Part shown: positions 4,654 through 26,437 of the stretch, piece by piece
How the letters are laid out: each line of letters starts with the position of its first letter
Position numbering within the stretch: position 1 is the first letter of the stretch
NCBI RefSeq assembly: GCF_044324785.1
Contig: NZ_CP172127.1
Source: Escherichia coli
GTDB taxonomy: Bacteria; Pseudomonadota; Gammaproteobacteria; Enterobacterales; Enterobacteriaceae
Strand: one strand, 5' to 3'
Length of the DNA stretch: 64,000 nucleotides
Program-made: the position numbers and the translations under genes
Notes under the pieces: model-generated
What the model was told of the DNA's origin: nothing
What the model saw: the letters and a program-made list of their open reading frames with translations, nothing else
Databases searched by the model: none

Positions 4654-5178
4654 ATGAAACGTAAACTTATTGCCTTTGTGATTCTGGCTACATCATCCTG
4701 TGGATATGCAGCCACCAAAGATGTAACAATGAATCTTGTTGATAGTGACGGAAAAGAGCGAAATATTGGTAAAATAACCATCCAGAAGACACCCTACGGG
4801 CTGCTGTTCACCCCTGATCTTCACTCCTTACCCGCCGGCATTCATGGTTTTCATGTACATGAAAACGCAAGTTGTGCTCCTGCCCTGAAAGATGGAAAAA
4901 CTGTCGCTGCTTTATCTGCAGGTGGTCACTTTGACCCGGAAAAAACAGGGAAGCATCTCGGTCCATGGTCTCCTGATGGCCACCTGGGTGATCTCCCTGC
5001 GCTTTATGTCACTCATGACGGAAAAGCAACCTACCCGGTGCTTGCGCCAAGACTATCTGAATTAAAGGAGCTCGATGGCCGTTCGCTAATGCTCCACGCA
5101 GGAGGTGATAATCATGATGACCATCCTGAACCTCTAGGTGGCGGTGGTGCAAGAATTGCCTGTGGTATCATCCCATAA
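4654..5178 (+). CDS. sodC: Periplasmic Cu/Zn superoxide dismutase, accessory SodC paralogue
   Basis: Signal peptide plus Cu/Zn-SOD motifs [49 protein letters not shown]; clearly diverged from the chromosomal K-12 SodC as recalled. Confidence 0.85.
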
Positions 5179-5185
5179 TCAATCA

Positions 5186-5208
5186 GGTAAGGGATATCCT
5201 CCCTTACC
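5186..5208 (+). terminator. Hairpin downstream of sodC (possible intrinsic terminator)
   Basis: GGTAAGGGA-tatcc-TCCCTTACC perfect 9-bp stem just after the sodC stop; weak U-tract. Confidence 0.35.
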
Positions 5209-5306
5209 CTTAATCTTCCCTGGCTGCATGTGCATATCTTTCAGTTACTGTGAGATACCTGTATTACGGTGTCTTTTTAGCTCACAGAAATATCAGACAG
5301 CCCGTT

Positions 5307-5531
5307 TCAGTGTTTTATTACCTTAATCTTTTTACGGCATTCTTCAGCTCTTGCGCATGCTATTTTTTCACCTGTTTCATAACATTGCTGGCAGCCTAAT
5401 CCAAATTTCATCGCCATATCATAACCTTCCCGAAAACCTCGGAACCACGCGTTACGAAGGTATTCATCATATTCCCCGCAGTCAATAATAACCATTTTAT
5501 TTTCATGGGATTTTCCGGTATTCTCACTCAT
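5307..5531 (-). CDS. Hypothetical small cysteine-rich protein (about 74 aa from MSENTGKSHENK)
   Basis: ORF only; internal Met chosen as start; no recognisable family. Confidence 0.25.
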   Translation of the reverse strand: MSENTGKSHENKMVIIDCGEYDEYLRNAWFRGFREGYDMAMKFGLGCQQCYETGEKIACARAEECRKKIKVIKH

Positions 5532-6360
5532 TTTCGATACCTCAATGCTTACAACAGAAAAGTATACTTTTACGAAGTTCGCCTTTGCAGGACTATATAA
5601 AGTTATCACTGGATGCAAGAGCCGGAAATCCTGTATATCAGGATCAACTTTGTAATTCAATAACATATTATCCAGTGAAAAAGTAAGTATATTTAAGCTG
5701 GGGAAGGAGAAGGGGGACTTGATTTGATATTTTCATCAATAATATTATTTTTCCTCCTCCATTATTCATTCAGACCTGGTTCCGGGCGTAATTCCGATTT
5801 CTCTGTTGAAGCGATGCATTTATATTTAAATATTCACCTGTCATTGAATTTTATTTGAAATAGGAGAAAATCTCCTCCTGTACTACAGATAACCCGGAAT
5901 GTTCCTCGAAAGAAAATTCTGGCGCAGAATTCACGCCCGGTTCTGTTCAACATCATGCAGGATAACGATACCGAAACGTTAAACTCTGGCAATTCTCGTG
6001 TTATACACAGGCAGGAGTGATTACTACGGTAAGAATTGCTGAAAAGGGGAGAACACTGAAGGCCTTATTCGCGAAGAATAAAGGAGACATTTCATGTAAA
6101 TTATTATCAGAGATAACCTTCTCCAGGCGCTTTTGTTCGCTTCCTGAATTGCTACCTGATACATATTTACGGGATGCCAGCCTGGTGACTATAACTCCGA
6201 AAAGACCGATTATTGTATTGCGTGCATCCGGCATGTTTACAATGTACGCTGGTATCTAACGGAGTCTGACACAGATGCACGCAGGTGTATATTTTAACGT
6301 AATTATCCGGAAAGAACAGTATATTTTAATGCGGGAGTTGCATGAGCGGTGGATTTGCCC

Positions 6361-11115: not shown

Positions 11116-11964
11116 ATGGGCCAGGTTGAACAGGTTTTTTCCCATGCGGTAAATCTGTTAATACCTGAACAGCAGCGACTGCTGACGTTACTGAGTGAGG
11201 ATTGTGATAACGCACCTAACAGTTGTCGTTTAGCACTGACACATTATGAAGACCTTTTTCACCCCGGTGAACAGGTCAATTTTAGCGGGTCTGGAATAAC
11301 TGTTGGAAATGATAAATGGATAGAAATAACCGGTTGTCAGATGTGGCGAATACCACGGTGGACATCTGATTCAGCAAGCCTTGCCAAAGTCGGCTGGCAG
11401 CATTGGGAAGAGTTTATCCGCCAACAACTAAGAAGCAACGACACATTATTTCTGTACCAGGGTGACAATCCATTTTATCAGGAAATTTCTCGCCAATTAC
11501 TCAACCGCCGAAAAAATTTGCTGAAGGCGTTGTGTACAGGAGAAAACATCACTGCGGCAGTCAACCAGTTAATTGGTCTTGGAATAGGGCTGACGCCATC
11601 ATCGGATGATTATTTAGTAGGTTTAAGCACTATTTTATTTATTCAAGGACATCCACTAAGGAAGTATAGATACGATTTCTTAGCAGCATTACAACTTGCA
11701 GGAAATAACATAACGCTTCTCAGCAAAATAACGTTAGAGGAAGCATTTAATCAGCGTTATCGGGAAAGAGTCGGACGGCTACTGAACCAATTTATTACTG
11801 AGCCACAACCCATTTCTACGCAATATGTTACTGACATAAAAAATATAGGCTCAAGTTCTGGATGCGACATGCTGTATGGCATGGCGGATGCCTGCGCCCT
11901 GAGCCACAGGTCCGGAGGTAATTATGTCAATCAGGATAGTTGTAAAAAAAAACACGTATTTTGA
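11116..11964 (+). CDS. Conserved hypothetical protein (YahE-like, DUF2877-type)
   Basis: 282-aa ORF; position between the ankyrin and FdrA-like genes mirrors the K-12 yahD-yahE-yahF order as recalled. Confidence 0.55.
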   Translation: MGQVEQVFSHAVNLLIPEQQRLLTLLSEDCDNAPNSCRLALTHYEDLFHPGEQVNFSGSGITVGNDKWIEITGCQMWRIPRWTSDSASLAKVGWQHWEEFIRQQLRSNDTLFLYQGDNPFYQEISRQLLNRRKNLLKALCTGENITAAVNQLIGLGIGLTPSSDDYLVGLSTILFIQGHPLRKYRYDFLAALQLAGNNITLLSKITLEEAFNQRYRERVGRLLNQFITEPQPISTQYVTDIKNIGSSSGCDMLYGMADACALSHRSGGNYVNQDSCKKKHVF

Positions 11965-13471
11965 TTCTGTTTCACTGATGTCTATCTCCACGCGCGCAAA
12001 TAAGCTTGATGGAGTTGAGCAGGCATTTGTTGCTATGGCGACAGAGATGAATAAGGGGGTGCTGAAGAATCTCGGTCTGCTGACCCCTGAGCTGGAAGAG
12101 GCGAAAAGTGGCGATCTGATGATTGTCATTAAAGGTACCAGCGAGGAGGCGAACGAGCGGACGCTAATAGCGATTGATGAGCTGTTTGCGCATAAAGAAC
12201 AGGGAGGCCAGCACGAAGCACGCTATGCCACGATTGCCAGTGCGAAGAAGCATGCTCCAGAGAGTAATCTGGCGGTGATCTCTGTCAATGGCCTGTTTGC
12301 TGCTCGTGAAGCTCGTCAGGCACTACAAAATAACCTCAATGTTATGCTGTTTTCTGACAACGTCTCTCTTGAGGACGAGCTGGAACTCAAGCATCTGGCA
12401 CATGAAAAAGGGTTGTTGATGATGGGGCCTGATTGTGGAACCGCCATCATTAACGGCGCAGCGTTGTGTTTTGGCAATGCAGTGCGTCGCGGCAACATCG
12501 GAATCATTGGTGCCTCCGGTACGGGTAGCCAGGAGCTGAGCGTACGCATTCACGAATTTGGCGGCGGGATTTCCCAGCTGATTGGGACAGGTGGACGCGA
12601 TATGAGTGAAAAAATTGGCGGCCTGATGATGCTTGACGCGATTAGCATGCTGGAGGCCGATCCACAAACTGAGATCATTACGCTTATATCCAAACCTCCT
12701 GCACCAGCGGTAGCCCGTAAGGTGCTGGAACGTGCGCGCACCTGTCACAAGCCTGTGGTGGTGTGTTTCCTCGGACGTGAGTCCACCCCTGCGGATGAAG
12801 AAGGCCTACAGTTTGCCCGCGGTACTAAAGAGGCTGCCTTGAAAGCGGTACTGTTGACTGGTGTGAAAAAAGAGAGTCTGGATTTGCATCCGCTCAACTG
12901 GCAGCTGATTGAAGAGGTTCGCTCCCGTCTGACTCCACAACAAAAGTATATCCGTGGCCTGTTCTGTGGTGGCACGTTATGCGATGAAGCGATGTTTACT
13001 GCCATGGAAAAACTCTCGGATGTGTATAGCAATATTCACCCGAATCCGGCGTTCCGCCTTACAGATCTCAACCGTAGCGTGGCGCATACCTTCCTCGATT
13101 TCGGCGATGATTATTTTACCAACGGCAAACCACATCCGATGATCGATCCCACCAATCGCATTACCCGGCTCTTGCAGGAAGCACAGGATCCTGAAGTTGG
13201 CGTGATCGTGATGGACTTCATTCTTGGATTTGGATCACATGAAGATCCGGTTGGAGTGATGCTGGATACAATTGTTGAAGCCAAAGAAATTGCTGCCGCA
13301 GACGGTCGCCCGCTTGAGATCCTCGGCTATGTGCTGGGAACCGACCTTGATACACCGTCGCTGAAAAAACAGTGTCAGATGTTGACCGATGCCGGGGTTA
13401 TTTGGGCAAGCAGTAGCACCAACACCGGATTACTGGCACGTGAATTTATATTTAAAGGGGAGGAAGGCTGA
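11924..13471 (+). CDS. FdrA/YahF-like protein (CoA-binding, succinyl-CoA synthetase alpha-like fold)
   Basis: N-terminus MSIRIVVKKNTYFDSVSLMSIS resembles the FdrA family; 515 aa; glycine-rich loops GASGTGSQE. Confidence 0.75.
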   Translation: MSIRIVVKKNTYFDSVSLMSISTRANKLDGVEQAFVAMATEMNKGVLKNLGLLTPELEEAKSGDLMIVIKGTSEEANERTLIAIDELFAHKEQGGQHEARYATIASAKKHAPESNLAVISVNGLFAAREARQALQNNLNVMLFSDNVSLEDELELKHLAHEKGLLMMGPDCGTAIINGAALCFGNAVRRGNIGIIGASGTGSQELSVRIHEFGGGISQLIGTGGRDMSEKIGGLMMLDAISMLEADPQTEIITLISKPPAPAVARKVLERARTCHKPVVVCFLGRESTPADEEGLQFARGTKEAALKAVLLTGVKKESLDLHPLNWQLIEEVRSRLTPQQKYIRGLFCGGTLCDEAMFTAMEKLSDVYSNIHPNPAFRLTDLNRSVAHTFLDFGDDYFTNGKPHPMIDPTNRITRLLQEAQDPEVGVIVMDFILGFGSHEDPVGVMLDTIVEAKEIAAADGRPLEILGYVLGTDLDTPSLKKQCQMLTDAGVIWASSSTNTGLLAREFIFKGEEG

Positions 13472-20429: not shown

Positions 20430-20578
20430 GTGTTCCCGACAGACGACTCGGTGAAAAAAGTGGTGTGGCTGGCAATCCAGTCTGCGTCCCAGAAATGGAC
20501 GATGCCGTTGAAGGACTGGCGAATGGCAATGAGCCGCTTTATTATCGAGTTCGGTGACCGCCTGGACGGTCACTTCTG
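20430..20578 (+). pseudogene. C-terminal fragment of an IS256/Mutator-family transposase, cut at the IS1 boundary
   Basis: VFPTDDSVKKVVWLAIQSASQKWTMPLKDWRMAMSRFIIEFGDRLDGHF followed by a stop; resembles IS256-family transposase C-termini as recalled; begins right at the IS1 end. Confidence 0.5.
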
Positions 20579-20848
20579 AGAAAAGGCATTTACACAGAAT
20601 CCTAAACAGGCTCATTCAGACAGCTTTTTATTTCACTATGGCTATCCCAGAACAATCAGTACAAATAATAAAAGACATATCACAGCAACACTCCACACTG
20701 ACAGCGCAAAAATAAATGCCGCCTTTGTTATCTTCATATACAAGCAACCTGTCCTGATAATCACCAGCTCATGTTTTATTCTTAACCATTCGTCACAAAT
20801 ACAACAAAAAATAACAGCAGCAGCACCGATATCACAATATAAGATACA

Positions 20849-21304
20849 TTATTCAACACCTGAATCCCCCGCCGCTTCTCTCCCCTTTATAAAACGCCCC
20901 TTCCGGAATCCAGACCGCTGCAGTGCACGACGAAGATGACCGTATACCGTCTTGTCATTCTGCCCCGTCTCTTCTGTAATCTCCGCAATACTTAAACCTC
21001 TGTAATACCGGTTCAGTAACGCTCTGCGCTCTTCCAGCGTCAACACACCTCCGGCCGCTCTCAGATTCAGCATCGACTTATTCAGAATACAGCAGGCCTC
21101 TCCGGTAAAAAGAATACGAACAATATCTGTATACTCATCATCACAGAATACAAAATAATATCTGAATGACCTGCCTGACTGCACCCTTCTTCTGTCTGAT
21201 ATGGCATCTTCTATATATCTGATTCGACTGCTTACGGTTCCAAATACCTCTCGCAGGGCTTTTTCAAAATAAATATCTCTCGTCGCCAGGATTATATCCA
21301 GCAT
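20849..21304 (-). CDS. Putative HTH transcriptional regulator (LuxR/sigma-70 region-4-like C-terminus)
   Basis: C-terminal LTLEERRALLNRYYRGLSIAEITEETGQNDKTVYGHLRRALQR resembles a GerE/region-4 HTH; lies immediately upstream of the adhesin gene on the same strand. Confidence 0.5.
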   Translation of the reverse strand: MLDIILATRDIYFEKALREVFGTVSSRIRYIEDAISDRRRVQSGRSFRYYFVFCDDEYTDIVRILFTGEACCILNKSMLNLRAAGGVLTLEERRALLNRYYRGLSIAEITEETGQNDKTVYGHLRRALQRSGFRKGRFIKGREAAGDSGVE

Positions 21305-21365
21305 CTCTGTACCTCATTATATCCCGGGGGACTCCCCCCGGGACAGATATCTAAATCCTGACCTG

Positions 21366-22631
21366 TCAGAACTCAAAATTCACACCAGCATTCCACGATG
21401 CGGATGACCCACCTGCAGCAACTGCAACTTTTCCTGCCACATTCTCTGTGAAACGGTAGCCCACGCCCACCGCAATGGCCTGCTCATCACGGTAACCACC
21501 AACGGCTGCTGTCGCGTTAAATTTTCCAACACTGTATGGCTGGAAAAGACCGGCCAGTGCCGCGCTCTGGGCTGCACTCTCCCTTAACTCCTTCCGGTTC
21601 TCTTTAATCTGCTCCTGCATATTATTCATTCTCTCTGTCGCCATCTTCTGCCAGGCTTCCGTCAAATCCAGACGATGACTGTTATTCCTTATCGCTGCTG
21701 TATTTGAGGCTATTGCTGCATCCGTCTGCGCCCTGTTCTTCACAAGCACATCGCTGAGATGTTCTGCCTGGCTTTTCGCTTCTTTACGGGCATCCCGTAC
21801 ACTTTTATCTGTATAAGCCCGGGAAACCTGAACTGTTTCATCCGCTTTTTCTTTTATTTCATCCTGAAGAGCAAGAGAAGATGCATCCGTATACGCCACC
21901 GCTGCCGATGTGCCTGCAATAATATCCCTGCTGAGTTCATCACGTACTGCTGTAACCTGACTGTCAGTATGAGCACGGGCATCTCTGTATACACCGCCTA
22001 TCTCACCGCGCAGGGCATCCCCCGACACCCGTACAGCATCTGCAATGGCGTTGTCCATCTGTCCTTTTGTGGCCGCATCACTATCCTTAACACCATCTGA
22101 AACATTTATAATCCGGCGGGTTTCCGGTGCTCCTTTGACACTCTCTCCATATCCCTCAGGCCCGGCACCAACAGATACCACGTTATTTTCTCCCGACACC
22201 TGTGAGCCATGGCCCAGAGCTACAGAACTGGTAGAATCCTGCACAGATGAAAACGCACCAATTGCCGAGCTCTGACGAGAAGAAATAAGTGACGCTTCTT
22301 TTCCTGCAACAGTCCCCCATTCAGAGTCAGCAATAAGTGCATCATGCCCCAGACTCACACTTCCCGGAGAGTTCACAACACCAGAATTATTCCCCAAAAG
22401 CACAGTCCTGTTTGAGTCTAATAAAAAAGAATCATCACCAATCAACCATACATTTCTTACTTTATCAATCGAACGGCCAGCTACTGATTCTCCAACAAGA
22501 AAGCTATTATCTTCGCCAGGTTCAATCGGTCCGATTAAAATATCCTGAGCCTGAGCCTGAGCCGAGAGCAGCAGGGCCACACTCACTGCCAGCGCGCTTT
22601 TCTTTAAAAAAGCATCACGTCTTTTAAGCAT
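21366..22631 (-). CDS. Trimeric autotransporter adhesin (YadA-like C-terminal anchor; Eib/Saa-like)
   Basis: Signal peptide [28 protein letters not shown]; repetitive head, long coiled-coil stalk; C-terminal anchor ...[35 protein letters not shown]; RBS AGGAGA before the ATG at 22631. Confidence 0.7.
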
Positions 22632-23118
22632 TCTGTTATTCTCCTGTATTATTACTTCACCAGCCAGAACGGTAGTGCGGAGCAAAAATACAGTGATAAG
22701 AATCCTCTTTTATTAATTTAATAATGCCAGGAATATTATTGTGTATAATATGCGCCCTCAATTTAAGCAGCAGAAAAGCAATGACGAGAAAATCATTAAA
22801 ATACATAAAGATAAAACATCATAACTATAATTATAATAAGCGCGCTTATTTTAGCATCTGAACATTTAAAGTACTGCTATCACAAAACAATAAAAATCCT
22901 GGGTAATATCTCTGATGATTGAATGAGAAATTCACGATGTCTGGTGAGAATTCTGTTCAAAACGAGGAATGCAGACATACATGTGGCAGGCATGGACTTC
23001 CACCGATTTAACTTTTTTCCTTCCTTGTATTTACACATCACACATTTTGCGCTACAAAAATTTCACGTGGCACGCACCACGTGATCCGTAGAAAAGCCTC
23101 TTGTTACGAATTTCGTAA

Positions 23119-23150
23119 ACCGCACGTCTGTCTGGTCGTGCGGATTTTTT
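23119..23150 (+). terminator. Orphan intrinsic-terminator-like hairpin with U-tract
   Basis: CCGCACG-tctgtctggt-CGTGCGG followed by ATTTTTTAT; no + strand CDS upstream. Confidence 0.4.
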
Positions 23151-23343
23151 ATCCGTCAACTTCACATGAAACCGCCAGATCACTGTTTCCGGATTCAGAC
23201 ATCAGGCATATTATCATCCACAATGTCGTGAACAAGATCACACTTTTGCAATTCCTTTATTGATCGAAAGCAGTTAATCACGGAAATTAATTACCGGAGT
23301 GAAAGCATTACTGCATCGTAAATATCTACCATTTTTGACTACA

Positions 23344-23373
23344 CCCTCTGACAGAATTTTCAGAGGGTTTTTT
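23344..23373 (+). terminator. Orphan intrinsic-terminator-like hairpin with U-tract
   Basis: CCCTCTGA-cagaattt-TCAGAGGG followed by TTTTTTAT. Confidence 0.45.
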
Positions 23374-23827
23374 ATCAGTTTCACCATCCAACCCTGTACG
23401 CCAGAATGGTTTCACTGTCACTCAGTTCTGCTATTGCCTTTTTCATCTCCCTTTACCTTACGTTCTGCCAGAGTCTGAGCCATTTGAACAGGAGGTTATC
23501 ATTGATATCGTGTTCCCGGGCAATACGGGCAACAGAGGCTCCTGGTTGCAAAACCAGTTTAACCATTTGAAGTTTAACTCATTTGAAAATGATCTGCGGG
23601 GTTCTGCGGATAATGTTTTTGCTCCATAACAGGCGCCCACCAGTTTGAAAAGGTGGGCACCTACGTTACCAATACTGGCTTAATGGATACATACGGCGGT
23701 CGGTTCTTACGGTAAAACGACACAACCAAACGCTTCTTATCCTGCAATGAACTGCTTTATTACCGAGTTTAGTGACCGCACAGACACTCACTTTTAAGAA
23801 AAACAGAATGGTAAACAAACTCCATGA

Positions 23828-24007
23828 ATTACAATAGCTCTCTGGCTGCCGCCACAATAGCTTGCGCGGTTAACCCGTACTCTCTCTGTAAAAAGTCCTG
23901 AGTTTCAACCTGGCCATACCGCTCTTTAACCCCCACCCGACGCATGGGCACAGGACAAGTTTCTACAAGCACTTCAGCAACTGCTGAACCTAATCCATTA
24001 TGAATAC
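23828..24007 (-). pseudogene. 3' remnant of a transketolase C-terminal-subunit gene, truncated by the IS1-like element
   Basis: Minus-strand translation ...IHNGLGSAVAEVLVETCPVPMRRVGVKERYGQVETQDFLQREYGLTAQAIVAAARELL* resembles transketolase C-terminal domains; the upstream coding sequence is replaced by the IS1-like element at 24008. Confidence 0.5.
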
Positions 24008-24770
24008 GGTAATGACTCCAATTAGTTGAATTAGGAGTATAATAGCCACTTTTAAGGTTCTTTCATGGTCACAGTTAACCTTCATTGCTCCTGTTGCCAG
24101 TCCGTTCAGGTTTACCGTCACGGGAAGAACCCAAAGGACATGATCGATTTCGCTGCCGTGACTGTCATCGAGTGCTTCAGCTCACTTACCGTTACGAGGC
24201 CCGTAAACCGGGAGTTAAAGAGCAAATCACTGAAATGGCTTTCAACGGTGCCGGAGTTCGCGATACTGCCCGTACGCTGAAAATCGGCATTAATACTGTC
24301 ATCCGGACTTTAAAAAACTCTCGCCACGAAGAATAACGTCATACCCGGTCGCTCATGCTGATATGGCACTCATCTGCGAACTTGATGAGCAATGGAGTTT
24401 TGTCGGCAGTAAAGCGCGACAGCACTGGCTCTGGTACACGTACAACACGAAAACTGGTGGCGTTCTGGCCTACACTTTTGGCCTACGGACTGATTAAACC
24501 TGTCGTGAATTGCTGGCGCTGCTTGCCCTTTTACCATCGGTATGTTGACCACTGACGAATGGGGTAGTTACACCAGAGAGTTACCGAAGGAGAAGCATCT
24601 GACTGGTAAGATTTTTACTCAGCGCATTGAGCGCAACATCTACCTCTGAGAACCCGAATCAAACGTCTGGCCCGCAGAACTATCTGTTTCACGCGCTCTG
24701 TAGAACTTCATGAAAAAGTCATCGGTGCCTTTATCGAAAAATATATGTTCTACTAATTGGAGTCACCACC
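24008..24770 (+). mobile_element. Degenerate IS1-family element (divergent from canonical IS1, disrupted reading frames)
   Basis: IS1-like termini GGTAATGACTCCAA ... TTGGAGTCACCACC; InsA-like ...RFRCRDCHRVLQLTYRYEARKPGVKEQITEMAFNGAGVRDTARTLKIGINTVIRTLKN and InsB-like fragments split across frames. Confidence 0.7.
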
Positions 24771-25321
24771 TTCGTTTGTTTAAAGAACCTGCTGGTCCTG
24801 CCATTAATATTACCTGCTGATTGCTTCACATCCGGATTCCTCGCACTGCGCGCGGGTTATTGTTTCGTTTTCGGCCACGGGGTCGCCAGGGCTCTGTTTG
24901 CAGGCCATGATGGCCTGACCTGTACTGTTTCTCAGGCACTGAGATGTCCGTTTACGCCATTTGTTCCCGGATATCCTTAACCTCTGACGTTTGTTCCCTG
25001 CCCCTCTGTCTGATAACGAATACGCTCACAACGCACAGTACTGAACAATACCGACAACAACATGTCTTACATGAAATTCGCTGTAACATCCACCGGAAAA
25101 CATTTTCAGATATCGGATGAGGTACTACTTCCATTGACAGCGCGAGGTAACAAAATTGATGGTAACTCTGACCATTAACCGTAAACCGCAGGGTATTTTC
25201 AGTAAATCACCGGCAACGCCGCTGCAGAATAAAACGGACACAGCATACAAAATGAAGGCCGGTGACCAGATACCACAGTTGAACGATAAACAGAAACCTG
25301 CTGATAAAACACCGTGGCGAC

Positions 25322-25667
25322 ATGACAAAACGCCAGAGCAAAAACCGTAAGCGCATTATTCGTCTTGTGGAACTCTGGCCTGAGTCATTCAACCGGGAAA
25401 AAAACAAAACCACTTAAAGTGGGGATACCTGACGACCTGATACAGGATATCGCCATCCGAGAACTGGCGTTTGGCGCTGGTACATTACATGCAGCAGTGG
25501 CGTCTTATGTGCAGTCTCCGCGCTATTACCGTGCGTTAATAGCAGGTGGCGCCCGTTACAACCTGAACGGTCAGCCGTGCGGGGAAGTGACACCACAGGA
25601 ACAGAAAGAGGCAGAGACCCGTTTAATGATGCTGAATGACCGACGAAAAGACAGAAAACCTCGTTGA
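25322..25667 (+). pseudogene. FinO/ProQ-family RNA-chaperone-like gene interrupted by a frameshift in an A7 tract
   Basis: Frame 1 MTKRQSKNRKRIIRLVELWPESFNREKNKTT* stops at 25415-25417; the +1 frame continues ...KPLKVGIPDDLIQDIAIRELAFGAGTLHAAVASYVQSPRYYRALIAGGARYNLNGQPCGEVTPQE (FinO-like); junction at GGGAAAAAAACAAAACC (25395-25411). Confidence 0.55.
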
Positions 25668-25684
25668 CTGCACAACAGCGCTGT

Positions 25685-26437
25685 TCACTGAGCTGTAATC
25701 AATGTACAGCGCTGTACCGGGCGATGGGTAATACCGGTCACAACCGGTAACCCCAGAGACAATGCAACTGTTTTTAACGCAATATACTGGCCGGATGTAT
25801 CACCCCGGGCAGCCTGAAAACACCTTTCCACCCGGCATTGTCCGTCAGCACTTATCACCCGCCATGTCTGTTGCAATAAATCCACCCGTTGCGAACATTC
25901 TTCATCAACCGTGGCACTGACCCGTGGATGGCAAATGCTCGTCTGGCTGAGCAGCAACAGGCATCGCATTGTTGCTCCTCCATGTTGTTCCCGCAACCAG
26001 CGTAATACCACCGGTGGTGCTGGACTGGCCGTGTGATTACGTTCAGTAATACGCTCGTGCACCTGTCGGTAAAAGGAAGTACAGAATGCATGAATCTGTT
26101 GTCCGTTGATGTTTCCTTCTGCCGAATGGAGTGTGAAGTGGACGGCCAGCAGACGCGGCCAGTGATCCACCGCCTGCTGAATAAAACGCCGGATTTCCAC
26201 CGGCTCTGAAAGTACGGTTTCGGTTATTTGCACGATTTGATCCCCTTGAATGTTGCTGAACCGGTGTCGGTACGCAGGAAAGCACGCCGAGACCGGTACG
26301 ATGCCTGTTACAGCGAAGAACGAGGAATGACAGACGGGGGCAGCAGGTCGCCAGCACCAGGGACAGGGCTGATTTCCACAATACCAACGCTGGTATTTTG
26401 CACATTGCCAGCGTACCGGCATTACAACACGTTTCAT
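25685..26437 (-). CDS. Hypothetical protein, start overlapping the alpA stop
   Basis: ORF with ATGA overlap to alpA; cysteine/tryptophan-rich N-terminus (MKRVVMPVRWQCAKYQRWYCGNQPCPWCW); no family recognised. Confidence 0.4.
   Translation of the reverse strand: MKRVVMPVRWQCAKYQRWYCGNQPCPWCWRPAAPVCHSSFFAVTGIVPVSACFPAYRHRFSNIQGDQIVQITETVLSEPVEIRRFIQQAVDHWPRLLAVHFTLHSAEGNINGQQIHAFCTSFYRQVHERITERNHTASPAPPVVLRWLREQHGGATMRCLLLLSQTSICHPRVSATVDEECSQRVDLLQQTWRVISADGQCRVERCFQAARGDTSGQYIALKTVALSLGLPVVTGITHRPVQRCTLITAQ

Follow-up and report, generated by a model that had tools for sequence, protein, structure and literature searches.

A probable deletion scar in an Escherichia coli genomic island, in which a defective IS1H-type element stands in place of 5,284 bp of a PTS-transketolase module

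Introduction

The Salmonella transketolase TktC is encoded by two adjacent genes that lie beside PTS genes. In PMC12651746, which cites Shaw et al. 2018 as its ref. 59, TktC appears as the third transketolase of Salmonella (Typhimurium). Another split transketolase, that of Carboxydothermus hydrogenoformans, has been solved structurally (PDB 6yaj/6yak). The locus described here resembles these systems in its intact E. coli allele, in which the N and C subunits are encoded by overlapping genes; in contrast, the window (the whole stretch of E. coli DNA analysed, 64,000 nucleotides long) keeps residues 260-317 of the C subunit only.

A different transketolase gene, tkt1, has been described on an island of APEC O1 and other ExPEC; its full-length transketolase is encoded in one piece, by a gene of 1,998 bp, and its 16-kb island lies between metE and ysgA and places it beside a glucose-type IIBC gene (PMC3349570). 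The likeness is that the tkt1 island, too, brings a transketolase-like gene and a PTS gene together on an E. coli island, in avian and human extraintestinal strains. We considered this island as the source of the fragment in the window and rejected it, as it holds another gene, at another locus, with a PTS of another family. The cluster c3405-c3410 in GI-metV of strain CFT073 may be a similar PTS/transketolase cluster; our literature search found no confirmation of this, and searches that asked whether AGI-3, the selC island, is connected, or that addressed the split Salmonella transketolase TktC, returned nothing usable.

The second component of the locus is an insertion sequence of the IS1 family. 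It shares with that family the ~768-bp length class (763 bp here and 766 bp in an intact relative), 23-bp inverted repeats starting GGT(G/A)ATG, an insA gene with a Zn ribbon and HTH, the A6C motif, and an insB' frame with a DDE transposase domain. Unlike IS1A, to which it is ~53% identical in DNA, the element has three frameshifts and one nonsense codon and is not flanked by a target duplication, and the original prediction of a diverged, frame-broken IS1-family element is therefore upheld.

Results

A truncated gene for a transketolase C subunit

The minus strand of positions 23829..24007 carries the remnant of a transketolase C-terminal-subunit gene. The original prediction had 59 codons left, starting from 23828; the minus-strand remnant stands, but the stop codon occupies 23829-23831 and is preceded by 58 whole codons, with a 59th cut down to 2 nt. 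The translation, which ends ...IHNGLGSAVAEVLVETCPVPMRRVGVKERYGQVETQDFLQREYGLTAQAIVAAARELL*, represents residues 260-317 of a 317-aa C subunit, i.e. the end of the Transketolase_C domain. A protein search with the fragment matched transketolase, with 55/58 identities to WP_063115976.1 ('transketolase family protein', 317 aa, from E. coli CLSC36; BLASTP, E = 2e-37), and across 179 nt the DNA is 97.8-98.3% identical to the intact genes. Taken alone, the stub scores 16.9 bits with Pfam Transketolase_C (PF02780; profile positions 74-124/124), against a cutoff of 25.9 and 112.6 bits for the same domain in the intact allele; because this is below the gathering threshold, the assignment of the stub leans on its near-identity with intact genes. 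The NCBIfam transketolase model NF004559 gives a weak match (positions 567-624/627, E = 5e-5), and models for DXP synthase also match weakly.

As determined by blastn, the stub is the 3′-end of a C-subunit gene that is intact, at 954 bp, in strains such as CLSC36 and 64.1. The 317-aa product of this gene contains Transket_pyr and Transketolase_C domains, of which Transket_pyr (PF02779, at residues 12-171) is missing from the stub. Directly upstream in the intact allele, and overlapping the C-subunit gene in both CLSC36 and strain 64.1, is a gene encoding a 276-aa Transketolase_N protein. On model NF004559, which has 627 positions, the N subunit spans 14-278 and the C subunit 315-624, and the nearest solved structure of the intact C subunit is 6yaj (E = 6e-70), the C-terminal chain of the C. 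hydrogenoformans split transketolase. The 55/58 identities, the adjacent N-subunit gene and the 6yaj match all agree with the original reading of the fragment as the C-terminal section of a two-subunit transketolase.

Several features of the stub bear on its function. The only start codon it offers is an internal GTG at 23972, and the in-frame upstream stops fall inside the IS; the adjoining N-subunit gene, encoding the thiamine-diphosphate-binding part, is deleted in the window. Because the promoter-proximal part, the start codon, the thiamine-diphosphate- and pyrimidine-binding domains and the partner subunit are all absent, we infer that the stub is a pseudogene without function. No enzyme can come from the window copy, which is a remnant and not a member gene of the split-type C subunits. 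In NZ_CP182371.1, PGAP annotates the region equivalent to window 23829-24014 (minus strand) as 'transketolase family protein', incomplete and missing its N-terminus. On islands of this kind, a match to a 'transketolase family protein' may be a stub that has no function.

The deleted segment and its junctions

In CLSC36, the intact module consists of genes for a LacI-family regulator, PTS IIA, IIB and IIC, transketolase N, and transketolase C, in that order. The PTS proteins have PTS_EIIA_2 (IIA), PTS_IIB (IIB) and EIIC-GAT (IIC) domains, and the IIC protein matches the NCBIfam 'PTS ascorbate transporter subunit IIC' model at 989 bits. Alignment of the window with this locus (L002) by blastn places 22544-24007 on 4687-6179 and 24771-25486 on 11464-12179, the latter at 100% identity, and the 763-bp element stands in place of exactly L002 6180-11463, a span of 5,284 bp. 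Lost with this span are the remainder of the C-subunit gene, the other five genes of the module, and 207 bp past the regulator gene. The right flank of the deletion (24771..25158), which is 100% identical to L002 from 11464, accordingly begins 207 bp past the end of the LacI-family regulator gene. Within the window there is no second copy of either the operon or the IS element. The intact CLSC36 module is on an island that adjoins setC/yicL and also contains ireA; the island in the window adjoins cadC.

The loss of a sugar-metabolism locus had been proposed from the fragment, and the comparison with genomes that have a two-subunit transketolase operon bears this out, as the same flanks enclose regulator, PTS, and transketolase N and C genes where the operon is intact, and the IS replaces exactly 5,284 bp in the CLSC36 comparison. 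The proposal needs one refinement: the gene is more than interrupted, in that the rest of the operon is deleted and the right flank resumes 5.3 kb away. The locus is thus a base-level record of an accessory carbohydrate locus, with an ascorbate-family PTS, a split transketolase and a LacI-type regulator, that was lost from an E. coli island.

The junctions are defined to the nucleotide. Homology to the transketolase gene stops exactly at 24007 and position 24008 is the first base of the left inverted repeat; the stub does end at the left terminus of the IS, as had been predicted. The 9 nt on either side of the element are TATGAATAC on the left and TTCGTTTGT on the right; they differ, no target-site duplication (8-10 bp, usually 9 bp) is present at the IS flanks, and both junctions are clean at the termini. 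The missing duplication points to an IS-associated deletion and not to a simple insertion, and because its absence is expected after such a deletion, it does not argue against membership in the IS1 family. That both breakpoints coincide with the IS termini to the base, with no 9-bp duplication, indicates that the event was IS-mediated. We therefore consider it very probable that a deletion has left its scar here on a genomic island of E. coli, where an IS1H-type element has replaced 5,284 bp of a PTS-transketolase module.

A defective IS1H-type element

The element, of the IS1H type, occupies 24008..24770 on the plus strand (763 bp), as delimited by its inverted repeats, by Pfam and NCBIfam matches, and by alignment of its flanks. 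The left terminal inverted repeat (IRL, GGTAATGACTCCAATTAGTTGAA) is at 24008..24030 and the right one (IRR, TTCTACTAATTGGAGTCACCACC) is at 24748..24770; each is 23 nt long and aligns with the termini of IS1A and IS1H, and the two are 87% complementary. The element shows 92.3% identity with an IS1H-type relic, which ~2,600 E. coli records have as a fixed copy between yiiX and an Rhs element, and 52.8% identity with IS1A.

Both transposase frames are on the plus strand and both are damaged. A broken insA, encoding the Zn ribbon and HTH, spans 24065..24336 with its stop codon at 24334-24336, and the insB' frame for the DDE transposase spans 24316..24756 with its natural stop at 24754-24756. Between them the programmed -1 frameshift motif, TTTAAAAAAC, read from the sequence at 24309..24318 (A6C at 24312-24318), is kept, and the A6C motif is conserved in alignments with IS1A, the IS1H relic, and the intact relative. 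We placed the lesions by alignment with this intact 766-bp relative, which resides on plasmid p2011C_4037-1 (L010 301-1066) and is annotated with a programmed frameshift. There is one lesion in insA, a 1-bp deletion in a shortened C run between 24129 and 24130, and there are three in insB': a nonsense codon (TAA, 24495-24497) and two further 1-bp deletions, one at ~24526-24534, which is common to the yiiX/Rhs IS1H relic, and one at ~24638. The InsA and InsB' sequence is scattered over three reading frames, and with three frameshifts and one nonsense codon the element is no longer autonomous.

The domain content is still recognizable. In the unrepaired frames, Pfam detects HTH_Tnp_IS1 at 105 bits, Zn_ribbon_InsA at 25 bits on a fragment, and DDE_Tnp_IS1 as two separate pieces in different frames, with 77 and 46 bits. 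When the frames are repaired conceptually, InsA contains complete Zn_ribbon_InsA (1-35/35, 63 bits) and HTH_Tnp_IS1 (1-46/46, 104.8 bits) domains and InsB' a complete DDE_Tnp_IS1 domain (1-131/131, 232.8 bits); the repaired element scores 148.5 bits with NCBIfam transpos_IS1, for which the cutoff is 100. In NZ_CP182371.1, PGAP annotates the region equivalent to window 24065-24756 (plus strand) as 'IS1 family transposase', frameshifted and with an internal stop. The stub and the dead IS are therefore both already annotated as pseudogenes by RefSeq (PGAP), and nothing here departs from known biology.

The deletion at 24526-24534 is present in both the window relic and the yiiX/Rhs relic (L004 1501-2264), when each is compared with the intact plasmid-borne relative. 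This shared insB frameshift is a hint that an IS1H derivative was already defective when it moved or was copied; it could equally be homoplasy, the same slip having happened twice in a C/T homopolymer run.

Distribution of the two alleles

We searched a population set of 5,426 complete E. coli genomes for each component of the locus. The 179-nt stub is matched (blastn) in 366 of them. With identical context, the deleted allele is present in 289/5,426 genomes, at 99.7-99.9% identity over a 1,901-bp query, and the intact 5.3-kb operon is present at >=99% identity in 133/5,426; the deleted allele is thus commoner than the intact one. Several genomes (23CRST013, AR13438, strain 135 and LH50-c) have both, at different chromosomal sites, and the module of stub plus IS occurs up to five times per genome. 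Copies of the IS at >=99% identity number 290 records, compared to 289 with the full context. An independently sequenced variant of the deleted allele, from EC1722-1 (L005), carries 4 substitutions that all fall outside the lesion sites, and its length, its junctions and all lesions are the same. The carriers of the deleted allele belong to many lineages and are often poultry-associated. The deleted allele could serve as a marker of island lineages.

Route of the deletion and alternative explanations

Adjacent deletions are a classical property of IS1. The starting point would be an ancestral island module comprising a LacI-family regulator, PTS IIA/IIB/IIC of the ascorbate/EIIC-GAT family, and transketolase N and C. 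The intact arrangement is taken as ancestral, since a lone 3′ stub of a gene cannot have come first, and the change most probably ran from intact to deleted. A single IS could have generated the deletion of adjacent DNA through intramolecular transposition from one of its ends, or recombination could have occurred between two directly oriented IS copies. Both routes would lead to the same product; two chimeric junction queries found 0 records of a single-breakpoint IS intermediate with the operon intact in the 5,426 genomes, and because no such intermediate allele was found, the order of events given here is a proposal and the product is compatible with either route. The frameshift that is common to the copy at another locus suggests that the element may have been defective on arrival, in which case it would have had to rely on transposase acting in trans or else to arise by recombination.

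These considerations bear on two more specific versions of the mechanism. In the first, homologous recombination between two direct IS1H-type copies, one in the C-subunit gene and the other past the regulator, would have cut out the 5.3 kb. The product predicted is the one observed, with a single IS, no target duplication and breakpoints at the termini, and this sub-variant is open to a defective element, which the lesion in common with the other locus suggests may have lost function early. However, it needs two independent insertions of a rare element whose copies at >=99% identity are found in essentially one context, and neither a single- nor a double-insertion intermediate is present among the 5,426 genomes; we regard it as possible but on the unlikely side. 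The other version is a non-autonomous, MITE-like IS1 lineage, in which a defective derivative moved, and perhaps made the 5.3-kb deletion, by means of transposase provided in trans by an intact relative, for instance the one on the plasmid, with loss of the PTS-transketolase genes maybe also selected; we consider this scenario improbable.

Other readings would dispense with the deletion scar or give it a different meaning. If the IS did nothing but interrupt the transketolase gene, with the rest of the gene and operon on its other side, the gene fragment would stop exactly at the IS terminus, as it does; but no target-site duplication is present, the DNA that matches the right flank at 100% identity is found 5,284 bp away at the intact locus, past the LacI-family regulator gene, and operon sequence is nowhere in the window. 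The window-CLSC36 alignments, the junction sequences and the lack of an operon elsewhere in the window refute such a simple insertion, to which we give next to no credence. We attach an equally negligible probability to the idea that the 58 codons form an open frame by chance or are part of another thiamine-diphosphate enzyme (DXP synthase or pyruvate dehydrogenase E1 beta). The sub-threshold Pfam score of the lone stub and the weak matches of DXP synthase models would fit it, but at 97.8-98.3% identity the DNA matches the 3′-end of intact genes, which have an adjacent Transketolase_N partner, the two intact products span the full transketolase model, and the best solved structure is a split transketolase; the intact-allele domains, the 55/58 identity, the structure match and the NCBIfam coverage thus refute it. 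Finally, the stub and dead IS may have gained a new role, as a promoter, a terminator or a source of small RNA for their island neighbours. The module is highly conserved (>=99% across 289 genomes) and is present in up to five copies per genome, as such a role might predict, but a recent common ancestor and horizontal transfer of the island explain the conservation equally well, and the flanks are as conserved as the module (99.7-99.9%); we judge a new role very improbable.

The island around the scar

The deletion scar is located among other decayed and variable segments. Just downstream of the transketolase stop codon, before the YadA-like gene is reached, is a frameshifted remnant of a transposase N-terminus (23465..23640, minus strand; HTH_Tnp_1, 38.9 bits). 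Because this remnant is in both the intact and the deleted alleles, it records an older, separate decay event and is context only. The YadA-like trimeric-autotransporter gene itself (21366-22685, minus strand) is an uninterrupted ORF in the window, and PGAP calls it frameshifted in NZ_CP182371.1. An 80-nt unit of this gene (21934-22013) occurs once in the window and as several tandem copies with 99-bp spacing in NZ_CP182371.1, CLSC36 and strain 64.1; the adhesin varies in repeat copy number. Tandem Repeats Finder, run on 20500-26000, returned nothing relevant.

To the right of the IS is a ProQ/FinO-family pseudogene (25159-25667, plus strand). It is frameshifted in the window and likewise in CLSC36, whose allele keeps the operon, and is another pre-existing pseudogene of the island. 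Farther right is a CP4-type island backbone with an AlpA-like HTH gene, YeeU/CbtA and others. The left part of the island (~1-38000), including the stub and IS, is 99.8-99.9% identical to NZ_CP182371.1 (L006), where glnP marks the end of the island; in the window, as in other strains, the island runs on into the CP4-type backbone, which is only 83-92% identical, and ends at cadC. These differing continuations suggest recombination or rearrangement between paralogous islands. We take cadC at the right end of the island to mark what is the pheU neighbourhood in K-12; ARAGORN found no tRNA genes anywhere in 1-64000, and a related genome has an integrase remnant at the cadC end of the island. In a few strains (e.g. 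NZ_CP097198.1 and NZ_CP028589.2), an IS3-family insertion of ~1.3 kb divides the 1.9-kb region once more, which shows that IS traffic in this segment is continuing.
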